64,000 bases of DNA from Bythopirellula sp. GTDB taxonomy: Bacteria > Planctomycetota > Planctomycetia > Pirellulales > Lacipirellulaceae. The notes under the pieces were generated by a model, which was not told where the DNA came from, made no database searches, and saw only the letters and a list, made by a program, of their open reading frames with translations. Within the stretch, counting starts at the first letter, position 1. Each line of letters starts with the position of its first letter. The position numbers and the translations under genes are program-made. Shown piece by piece: positions 56,310 through 56,617 of this stretch. Where the stretch lies: the NCBI GenBank assembly GCA_028285205.1, contig JANQQA010000294.1, positions 2,021-66,020 on the forward strand, written 5' to 3'.

Positions 56310-56599
56310 GGGTGTCACTGACACCACGGAAGCTCAGTGCCGGGGCGTATTGGGGCGTACTCCTGTGCACGAGCAAGTGAAAAACTAGCGGAAAACATAG
56401 AGTTTCAATTTGAATGTTCAGCAGGCGACATATCCCTCAACCTAGCGCGTCTGCCAATTCCGCCACTTGCGCTCTACTCTGCCATTGTAGTGTCAAACAC
56501 AAATTTGCAATCTGCTACCAAAACTGCTTGACACCACTTTTGACACCTTGATACTGTCGTTTTCAGTTGGCACCTGCTGTTGGGTGTCAGTGACACCAC
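56310..56599. promoter_or_regulatory. att-like region with TGACACC(AC) repeats
   Basis: GGGTGTCACTGACACCAC (56310-56327), TGACACCAC (56529-56537), TGACACC (56541-56547) and GGGTGTCAGTGACACCAC (56582-56599), directly upstream of the integrase. Confidence 0.55.
56434..56472 (-). other. 5' half of a tRNA-Leu(GAG) (positions 1 to anticodon loop) with its own promoter-like boxes
   Basis: The minus strand reads GCGCAAGTGGCGGAATTGGCAGACGCGCTAGGTTGAGGG. TACAAT (56489-56484) sits 11 nt upstream. There is no 3' half. Confidence 0.65.
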
Positions 56600-56617
56600 T
56601 GCTTGAGGGGGCAGGTG

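Follow-up and report, generated by a model that had tools for sequence, protein, structure and literature searches.

The locus examined here raises the question of why a phage would carry the front half of a bacterial tRNA gene. In systems with tRNA-targeting integrases, the element normally brings the 3′ part of the gene. In the window, the 64,000-nt stretch of contig JANQQA010000294.1 on which all coordinates given below are based, a gap of 308 bp extends from the stop codon of a small helix-turn-helix (HTH) gene to the ATG of a tyrosine integrase gene (int), and the minus strand of this gap contains the 5′ half of a tRNA-Leu(GAG) gene. This gap is very probably the phage attachment site (attP) of a temperate tailed phage that infects Planctomycetaceae; the phage is present here in the unintegrated state, and the site is equipped with the 5′ half of a host tRNA gene.

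The minus strand from 56472 to 56434 reads GCGCAAGTGGCGGAATTGGCAGACGCGCTAGGTTGAGGG and comprises the acceptor 5′ strand, the D arm, the 5′ strand of the anticodon stem and the anticodon loop with GAG. This 39-mer is unique within the window, and zero occurrences would be expected by chance. In an exact-pattern scan of one genome per prokaryotic species, it was found in 23 contigs, all of which derive from Planctomycetaceae or from metagenome-assembled genomes (MAGs) of Planctomycetota, with 39 of 39 nucleotides identical to the host tRNA-Leu(GAG). In 20 of the 23 contigs, ARAGORN calls a complete tRNA-Leu(GAG) that begins with the 39-mer; two of the other loci are cut within the gene, and the third, L022, is described below. 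Directly after the block, the hosts read CCTAGTGGG, the 3′ strand of the anticodon stem, whereas the window reads ATATGTCGC, and identity thus ends at the final base of the anticodon loop. Apart from this block of 39–41 nt, the window has no similarity to the 23 host loci. These results are in agreement with the first-pass annotation of this DNA, which had recognized the tRNA-Leu(GAG) 5′ half from the sequence, had placed the end of the resemblance right after the anticodon loop, and had proposed a comparison with candidate hosts to locate the bacterial attachment site (attB). That site would be tRNA-Leu(GAG), with identity limited to the block. The absence of a T arm and a 3′ acceptor strand, also part of that annotation, holds for the whole window: in a search allowing up to three mismatches, neither element of tRNA-Leu(GAG) was found anywhere, nor was there 3′ tRNA-Leu identity elsewhere in the phage. 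The pattern GGTTCRANTCC has three matches in the window, none of them related to tRNA-Leu, which correspond to a phage tRNA and two tRNA-like minihelices. Neither ARAGORN nor Rfam (in gathering and E-value modes) calls the half tRNA in the window, which would be expected of a truncated tRNA. By analogy with other attachment sites at anticodon loops, the crossover most probably takes place in the anticodon-loop segment, TTGAGGG, at the 3′ edge of the block.

A corresponding arrangement is observed in relatives of the integrase that are integrated into chromosomes. The two closest integrases (66% and 65% identity) are located 157–169 nt upstream of, and divergent from, a complete tRNA-Leu(CAG) and a complete tRNA-Leu(CAA); GGTGTCA repeats are present in both spacers, and the tRNA is followed by a host-type terminator. 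When metagenomes were scanned with an alignment of 20 homologues, at least 561 related loci were confirmed, and the clade comprises more than 120 clusters at 47% identity or above. In the best 80 of these relatives (48–58% identity), which were analysed, a complete tRNA is found on the opposite strand upstream of int in 59 cases, 57 of them at a distance of 112–253 nt. The 59 tRNAs have 17 anticodons (Met, four Arg, Thr, four Leu, Gly, two Lys, Asp, Cys, two Ser, Phe). Another 11 of the 80 loci have less than 350 nt of upstream sequence, and in three of them the contig breaks off within the 5′ portion of a tRNA. GGTGTCA is repeated in most of the spacers between int and the tRNA throughout the clade, at a chance expectation of approximately 0.02 per spacer. 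Past the tRNA's 3′ end, typical planctomycete chromosomal genes are observed (PSCyt2/PSD1, DUF1559 and subtilase), and past int, homologues of the excisionase-like protein that is also encoded in the window. The integrated element is therefore positioned 5′ of the tRNA.

Five further relatives are unintegrated and carry a 5′ half only, which ends at position 37–41. L036 has positions 1–37 of tRNA-Arg(ACG) and, in the same place as the window, the same proximal palindrome, GGTGTCACTGACACC. L074, a metagenomic contig, has positions 7–39 of tRNA-Met. The remaining three are viral contigs of 97 kb (L113, positions 1–41 of tRNA-Lys(UUU)), 50 kb (L119, positions 7–38 of tRNA-Lys) and 87 kb (L123, tRNA-Ile(GAU), read by eye to approximately position 41). 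The viral relatives were reached by the alignment query only; no viral contig was matched by the exact 39-mer or by a query with a single integrase sequence. These relatives bear on whether the half tRNA might instead be a scar, left by a decayed phage tRNA-Leu gene or by host DNA from an imprecise excision, with the true attP located elsewhere. Phages commonly have tRNA genes and pseudogenes, and tRNA-like fragments do occur in the window at 58740–58825 and 59061–59110. Decay, however, would be expected to give scattered mismatches rather than 39 of 39 identities with a sharp end at the loop. Moreover, in L036, L074, L113, L119 and L123 the fragment occupies the same position between int and the repeat arrays but stems from other tRNAs, the integrated relatives have their tRNA in exactly the same place, and no host-identical sequence is present elsewhere in the window. 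Nor was there any indication for the rival attP that the first-pass annotation had named, the AT-rich spacer at 57782–57842. A scar is thus considered very improbable.

The organization of the gap around the half tRNA is summarized in Table 1. GTGTCA-type half sites occur seven times inside 290 bp, on both sides of the core, and TGACACC has six exact matches within the 308-bp gap, as compared to a chance expectation of approximately 11 over the entire 64 kb. The two palindromes and the two direct TGACACC half sites that had been described for this gap are all present. Both palindromes have the general form GGGTGTCA(C/G)TGACACCAC, and the distal and proximal copies match over 15 nt at 100% complementarity. 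The direct repeat in the distal arm represents a second candidate protein-binding motif: a related GGGGCGTAATTACGCCC is found in the same arm of L036, and GGGCGTCG repeats are found in L074. In addition, a promoter-like sequence that points at int overlaps the two direct half sites, which suggests that expression of int is controlled by whatever binds these half sites. The same half-site sequence, GGGTGTCA, had also been noted near 50 kb, where it is indeed present at 49874–49881 (minus strand) and 50417–50424 (plus strand). A link to the att region was not borne out: the 8-mer is modestly enriched (eight occurrences in the window versus 2.3 expected), and neither a further repeat or structure around these two sites nor anything else tying them to the att region was found.

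Table 1 Features of the putative attP and of the adjoining genes (window coordinates).
Feature	Position	Strand	Description
Small HTH protein, 136 aa	55898-56308	+	Weak resolvase-type HTH; Pfam HTH_7 20.8 bits, below cut-off; abuts distal attP arm
Distal palindrome GGGTGTCACTGACACCAC	56310-56327		Far edge of attP, directly after stop codon of HTH gene
Direct repeat GGGGCGTA-TT-GGGGCGTA	56342-56359	+	Distal arm; second candidate protein-binding motif
tRNA-Leu(GAG) 5′ half, positions 1-38	56434-56472	-	attP/attB identity block
Anticodon-loop segment TTGAGGG	56434-56440	-	3′ edge of block; putative strand-exchange (overlap) region
Candidate tRNA promoter TTGCAA (56505-56510), 15-nt spacer, TACAAT (56484-56489)	56484-56510	-	
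Extra GTGTCA half site	56490-56495	+	Abuts TACAAT box; part of inverted-repeat pairs
Promoter-like TTGACA-16-GATACT	56528-56555	+	10/12 consensus matches in promoter scan; points at int
Two direct TGACACC half sites	56529-56535 and 56541-56547	+	Candidate arm-type Int sites; overlap candidate int promoter
Proximal palindrome GGGTGTCAGTGACACCAC	56582-56599		Two inverted GGTGTCA half sites just upstream of int ribosome-binding site
Tyrosine integrase, 388 aa	56618-57784	+	Pfam Phage_integrase 31.7 bits (cut-off 27.1); PHROG 1 integrase, E = 9e-26
Excisionase-like HTH_17 protein	58065-58313	+	Pfam HTH_17, E = 1e-8; PHROG 66/2907 excisionase; TIGR01764 weak

Among 20 homologues of the integrase, residues R329, H351 and Y360 are invariant and R186 is nearly so, and an N-terminal segment (FPLFPH..RWAKKIRGK.HYFGPW) is conserved. 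The protein distantly resembles the structures of XerA, XerD and Tn1549 Int, and no matching model was found in NCBIfam. An identical integrase is also recorded on a 70,442-bp contig, and approximately 50,000 deposited phage genomes contain neither a DNA match to the window nor a protein relative of the integrase. The excisionase-like HTH_17 protein, a probable recombination directionality factor, has homologues downstream of int in 11 related loci. The 136-aa HTH protein on the other side of the gap is not conserved among the relatives.

Since a lone 5′ half with a promoter is also how attL, one of the two prophage-host junctions, would be expected to look in an element of the 5′-fragment class, the window could in principle be a chromosome with a prophage, with position 56434 as the junction. 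In that case, the DNA upstream of the half should be of host origin. Instead, the right side of the window (56.6–63.4 kb) encodes the integrase next to its arm-type repeats, the excisionase-like protein, an HNH endonuclease, a PAPS-reductase-like protein and an Erf recombinase, in the gene order seen at attR and attP of the relatives. On the other side, genes for the large terminase subunit, the major head protein and an internal virion protein are located on the minus strand at 21–44 kb, and the GC content is even over the window. The presence of phage DNA on both sides of the att region identifies it as attP rather than as a prophage-host junction, and a chromosomal origin of the window is regarded as extremely improbable. 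In sample SRR20820731, two short Logan contigs end within the 39-mer, one from each side, with an overlap of approximately 30 nt each that is read as the k-1 of the assembler. Such breaks would be expected of a block that occurs in two or more contexts in the sample; they are consistent with integration but do not prove it.

Of the two readings offered in the first-pass annotation, the first had the phage integrate into the host tRNA-Leu(GAG) at its anticodon loop and contribute a promoter together with the 5′ half. This reading is supported by the position at which the block ends, by the repeat-flanked attP next to int, and by the relatives. In the proposed mechanism, the 39-bp block would serve as the core, and the arms would be formed by the GGTGTCA-type repeats, with the palindromes at the edges and the direct half sites near int. 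These repeats are presumably bound by the conserved N-terminal domain or segment of the adjacent integrase, and the GGGGCGTA repeats in the distal arm may bind a second factor. Through strand exchange within the block, the prophage would come to separate the tRNA body from the host promoter, and the phage would thus have to supply both the 5′ half and a promoter. The predicted attR, ...TACAATGGCAGAGTAGA + 39-mer + CCTAGTGGG..., would present, in order, int, the arm sites, the phage upstream region, the phage-derived 5′ half and the host 3′ half. As the block is 100% identical, the sequence of the rebuilt tRNA-Leu(GAG) would be unchanged, and this tRNA would be transcribed from phage DNA, for which TTGCAA-15-TACAAT is the candidate promoter. 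The predicted attL, host upstream + 39-mer + ATATGTCGCCTGCTG..., would retain the host promoter and a dead 5′ half reading into the phage arm, and would have the 136-aa HTH gene as its neighbour in the lysogen. This geometry would be the mirror of the usual arrangement.

Both ends of an insertion are visible only in two loci, L134 and L022, the latter of which lacks int. In L134, an 8.2-kb int-bearing island is bordered on one side by a complete tRNA-Arg(CCT) and on the other by 13 nt that repeat the 5′ end of this tRNA; the 13-nt copy is found behind a TAAGAAT box, directly after a host acyl-CoA dehydrogenase gene. In L022 (host MAG contig CAWJOC010000021.1, 1634–2832), a perfect 5′ half of Leu(GAG), together with the host promoter, is followed by a 1.07-kb insert that contains two small open reading frames (ORFs) and no integrase, and then by a second 5′ half joined to the 3′ half. 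The second 5′ half has a lesion (GCGC to GCA) at the junction of the D stem and the anticodon stem; since the 3′ half is attached to this copy, the locus has no complete tRNA-Leu(GAG) other than the damaged one. In L040, a 5′ fragment of positions 1–26 is directly followed by a strong intrinsic-terminator hairpin. A displaced 5′ fragment was not found within the flanks of up to 6 kb of the metagenomic loci, in two exact-pattern scans of L117 (a 56-kb uncultivated virus genome, UViG), or within 10 kb in L135. The flanks of the metagenomic loci yielded 3′ fragments only, in L032 and L075. These repeats are located downstream of the int-adjacent tRNA, at 1.6 kb in L032 (1746–1778, tRNA positions 34–66) and at 5.8 kb in L075 (20–40, positions 56–76), and in both cases one tRNA gene appears to host two elements, a reversed one on its upstream side and a conventional one on its downstream side. 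Polarity also varies among the relatives themselves. L120 (39% identity) is conventional: its part of tRNA-Leu(TAA) starts at position 28, extends to the 3′ end and has the same orientation as int. In L127 and L128 (31%), the part present reaches from the T arm to the 3′ end. Arranged by identity to the integrase, the relatives sampled at 41–66% are reversed, and both forms are observed at 37–39%.

Several observations weigh against the proposed integration. At the 23 host loci, neither the integrase nor other window sequence was detected by blastn, tblastn or tblastx, so that no lysogen of this phage itself was found, and its attL and attR are predictions. The retained 5′ fragment is not always 38 nt long, as is evident from the 13 nt of L134 and positions 1–26 of L040. 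Ten of the 80 relatives have enough upstream sequence but no complete tRNA, and in seven of these (six distinct sequences, L086 and L090 being identical upstream) not even a fragment of a tRNA was seen; the 5′-fragment type is therefore not the only one in the clade. The metagenomic loci also include near-duplicates, with 59 unique upstream sequences among 64. Finally, the promoter of the rebuilt tRNA has a limited match to the consensus. Both boxes read in the first-pass annotation are in the sequence: TACAAT ends 11 nt ahead of tRNA position 1, and TTGCAA lies 15 nt beyond it. The description of the half tRNA as promoter-equipped holds for these boxes, which match the consensus at 5/6 and 4/6 positions, but not for the promoter scan, in which the pair was not called because the short 15-nt spacer falls outside the accepted 16–18 nt. 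That these boxes would drive the rebuilt tRNA is suggested by the consensus match and by the logical need for a promoter. In the relatives, there is no clear common -35/-10 (sigma-70) pattern upstream of the tRNA; an A/T-rich stretch at -14 to -8 is kept in position, together with some conserved positions further upstream.

The uncalled promoter with its 15-nt spacer and the lack of a common -35/-10 pattern would also fit a scenario in which integration silences the tRNA: the sequence would be rebuilt, but the phage upstream region would offer no working promoter, and the lysogen would lose tRNA-Leu(GAG) expression or rely on other tRNAs. The phage does have an odd tRNA of its own at 51430–51524. 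The anticodon of this tRNA is GAU and not GAG, however, and it cannot replace tRNA-Leu(GAG). In addition, the 100% identity of the 5′ half over 39 nt, which is likewise seen in the relatives, implies selection for a functional rebuilt gene, and the A/T-rich stretch at -14 to -8 is positionally conserved over the clade. Silencing of the tRNA is, on balance, quite unlikely. A separate observation concerns the spacers between int and the tRNA in L031–L110, where a bipartite motif, GTCAATAAG(T/C)CC-TTG or GACGTAAG..., recurs at approximately -35 to -15 from position 1. In many relatives, this motif keeps a roughly constant distance from the tRNA downstream of it. It does not look like an obvious sigma-70 promoter, and it may serve as a site for an accessory factor or as a promoter element of planctomycetes.

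The second reading in the first-pass annotation was that the locus makes an RNA in its own right. Additionally or instead, the promoter and the 5′ half would then constitute a gene for a tRNA-half-like small RNA (sRNA) with a regulatory or anti-host role, expressed from the free phage or from the host promoter at attL in a lysogen. The -10-like box 11 nt upstream of position 1 is compatible with such a gene, and the L040 fragment, which runs straight into its strong terminator hairpin, indicates that short transcripts may arise from such halves. In the window, however, the hairpin and T-runs that had been reported downstream of the half tRNA amount to a weak A/T hairpin; a scan of the window called no terminator there, and the predicted fold of the putative half-tRNA transcript is no better than that of shuffled sequences (z = 0.78). 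Furthermore, an end at the loop boundary and 100% identity to the host are requirements of recombination that an sRNA would not need, and the recurrence of the layout with six tRNA identities fits the choice of a target, not a single sRNA function. An sRNA gene is accordingly an unlikely explanation for the half tRNA, and integration with reconstitution of the host gene remains the preferred one.

The reversed polarity has precedents. Recombination with the 5′ part of tRNA genes is recorded as a minority case in a passage of PMC6563490 that cites Zhao & Williams 2002. In Islander, the configuration filter of which permits 5′ fragments, 159 of 3919 islands have a 5′ tDNA fragment and 3760 have a 3′ fragment (PMC4383910, Table 1). 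The polarity that had been called unusual is therefore uncommon, but it is not new, as it belongs to an already documented minority class. Like the reversed-orientation elements of this class, the phage in the window carries the 5′ part of the gene (positions 1–38) without the 3′ half, and the 5′ fragment would be displaced; in the relatives, the elements are located upstream of the restored tRNA, with host DNA downstream. Beyond what characterizes the class, the present case involves a tailed phage of Planctomycetaceae, a putative crossover in the anticodon loop of tRNA-Leu(GAG), and a polarity that is shared by most of the sampled integrase clade.

The locus can also be compared with the anticodon-loop class of tRNA-targeting tyrosine integrases, which is said to consist of lambda-type heterobivalent enzymes and in which the block reportedly spans from the loop to the tRNA's 3′ end. 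As in that class, the tyrosine recombinase gene adjoins an attP of approximately 250–300 bp, the block ends at the anticodon loop, arm-type motifs are found on both sides, and an excisionase-like gene is nearby. In contrast, the block in the window runs from position 1 to the loop, which would put the prophage on the promoter side of the gene, so that it must bring a promoter. A similar demand is seen with dusA-specific integrases, which, according to a passage of Farrugia et al. 2015 (PMC4482086), insert in the 5′ end of the target gene so that the element replaces this end. The dusA target, however, is a protein-coding gene and the integrases belong to a different family, whereas the target here is a tRNA gene. 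In the tRNA-dependent lysogeny of mycobacteriophages, as outlined in a further report (mBio 2024, PMC10865867), a temperate phage integrates in a non-standard manner in a host tRNA gene and carries a tRNA gene. The phage in the window differs from these phages in that its block would rebuild the gene exactly and its only good tRNA has the anticodon GAU, not GAG. In tRNA-dependent lysogeny, the host tRNA is reportedly not rebuilt, and a phage tRNA of the same isotype is said to compensate for it.

Three further observations concern tRNA-like sequences in the window and in one relative. The phage tRNA at 51430–51524 (plus strand; Rfam tRNA, 56 bits) has a type-II body with a 3-bp D stem, a 9-bp long variable arm and a discriminator G. 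These features are typical of Ser, Leu and Tyr tRNAs, yet the anticodon is that of Ile (GAU), and it would be odd for an Ile anticodon to be combined with a Ser-like body. A gene-free region of approximately 800 nt (58583–59390), located downstream of the excisionase-like genes, contains the two tRNA-like acceptor/T-arm minihelices. The first, at 58740–58825, is called by ARAGORN as an 86-nt 'tRNA-Cys(aca)' with a poor anticodon arm; the second, at 59061–59110, includes GGTTCGAGTCC. Both have weak Rfam matches only (mascRNA-like, tRNA-Sec, permuted tmRNA). Lastly, in the 18-kb contig L028 (ENA ERZ21829562 ctg230823c), a 3.82-kb unit is repeated head to tail at least three times, and each unit contains a complete tRNA-Leu(CAA), a 65%-identical integrase, a 64-aa ORF and an insertion sequence (IS) transposase. 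The repetition might reflect amplification in tandem; alternatively, a small circular element with a whole tRNA may have been assembled as a concatemer.

The phage in the window thus joins the known minority class of elements with a 5′ tRNA fragment, and what is new is a large, uncharacterised integrase clade of Planctomycetota that is mainly of reversed polarity. The rule that an element brings the 3′ part of the gene is broken in most sampled members of this one clade and not just in isolated elements. A wider proposal, which is put forward tentatively and for which the balance falls a little short of even, is that the clade extends across the Planctomycetota with hundreds to thousands of members, that it is undescribed, and that reversed polarity is its usual mode, each element carrying a promoter and positions 1 to approximately 38 of one of at least 17 tRNAs. 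If this is true, the prophages and islands of the phylum would routinely take over the transcription of host tRNAs and leave a 5′ tRNA half, driven by the host promoter, at the other junction. For the uncultured phage itself, of approximately 70 kb, the att site assigns Planctomycetaceae as hosts, and the exact attL and attR sequences predicted above can be searched for in reads. Pipelines for prophage boundaries that scan only downstream of tRNA genes would miss or mis-delimit elements of this kind. In such lysogens, expression of the host tRNA would depend on phage DNA, which may give the phage a handle on host translation, and transcripts of the tRNA half may be produced at attL.

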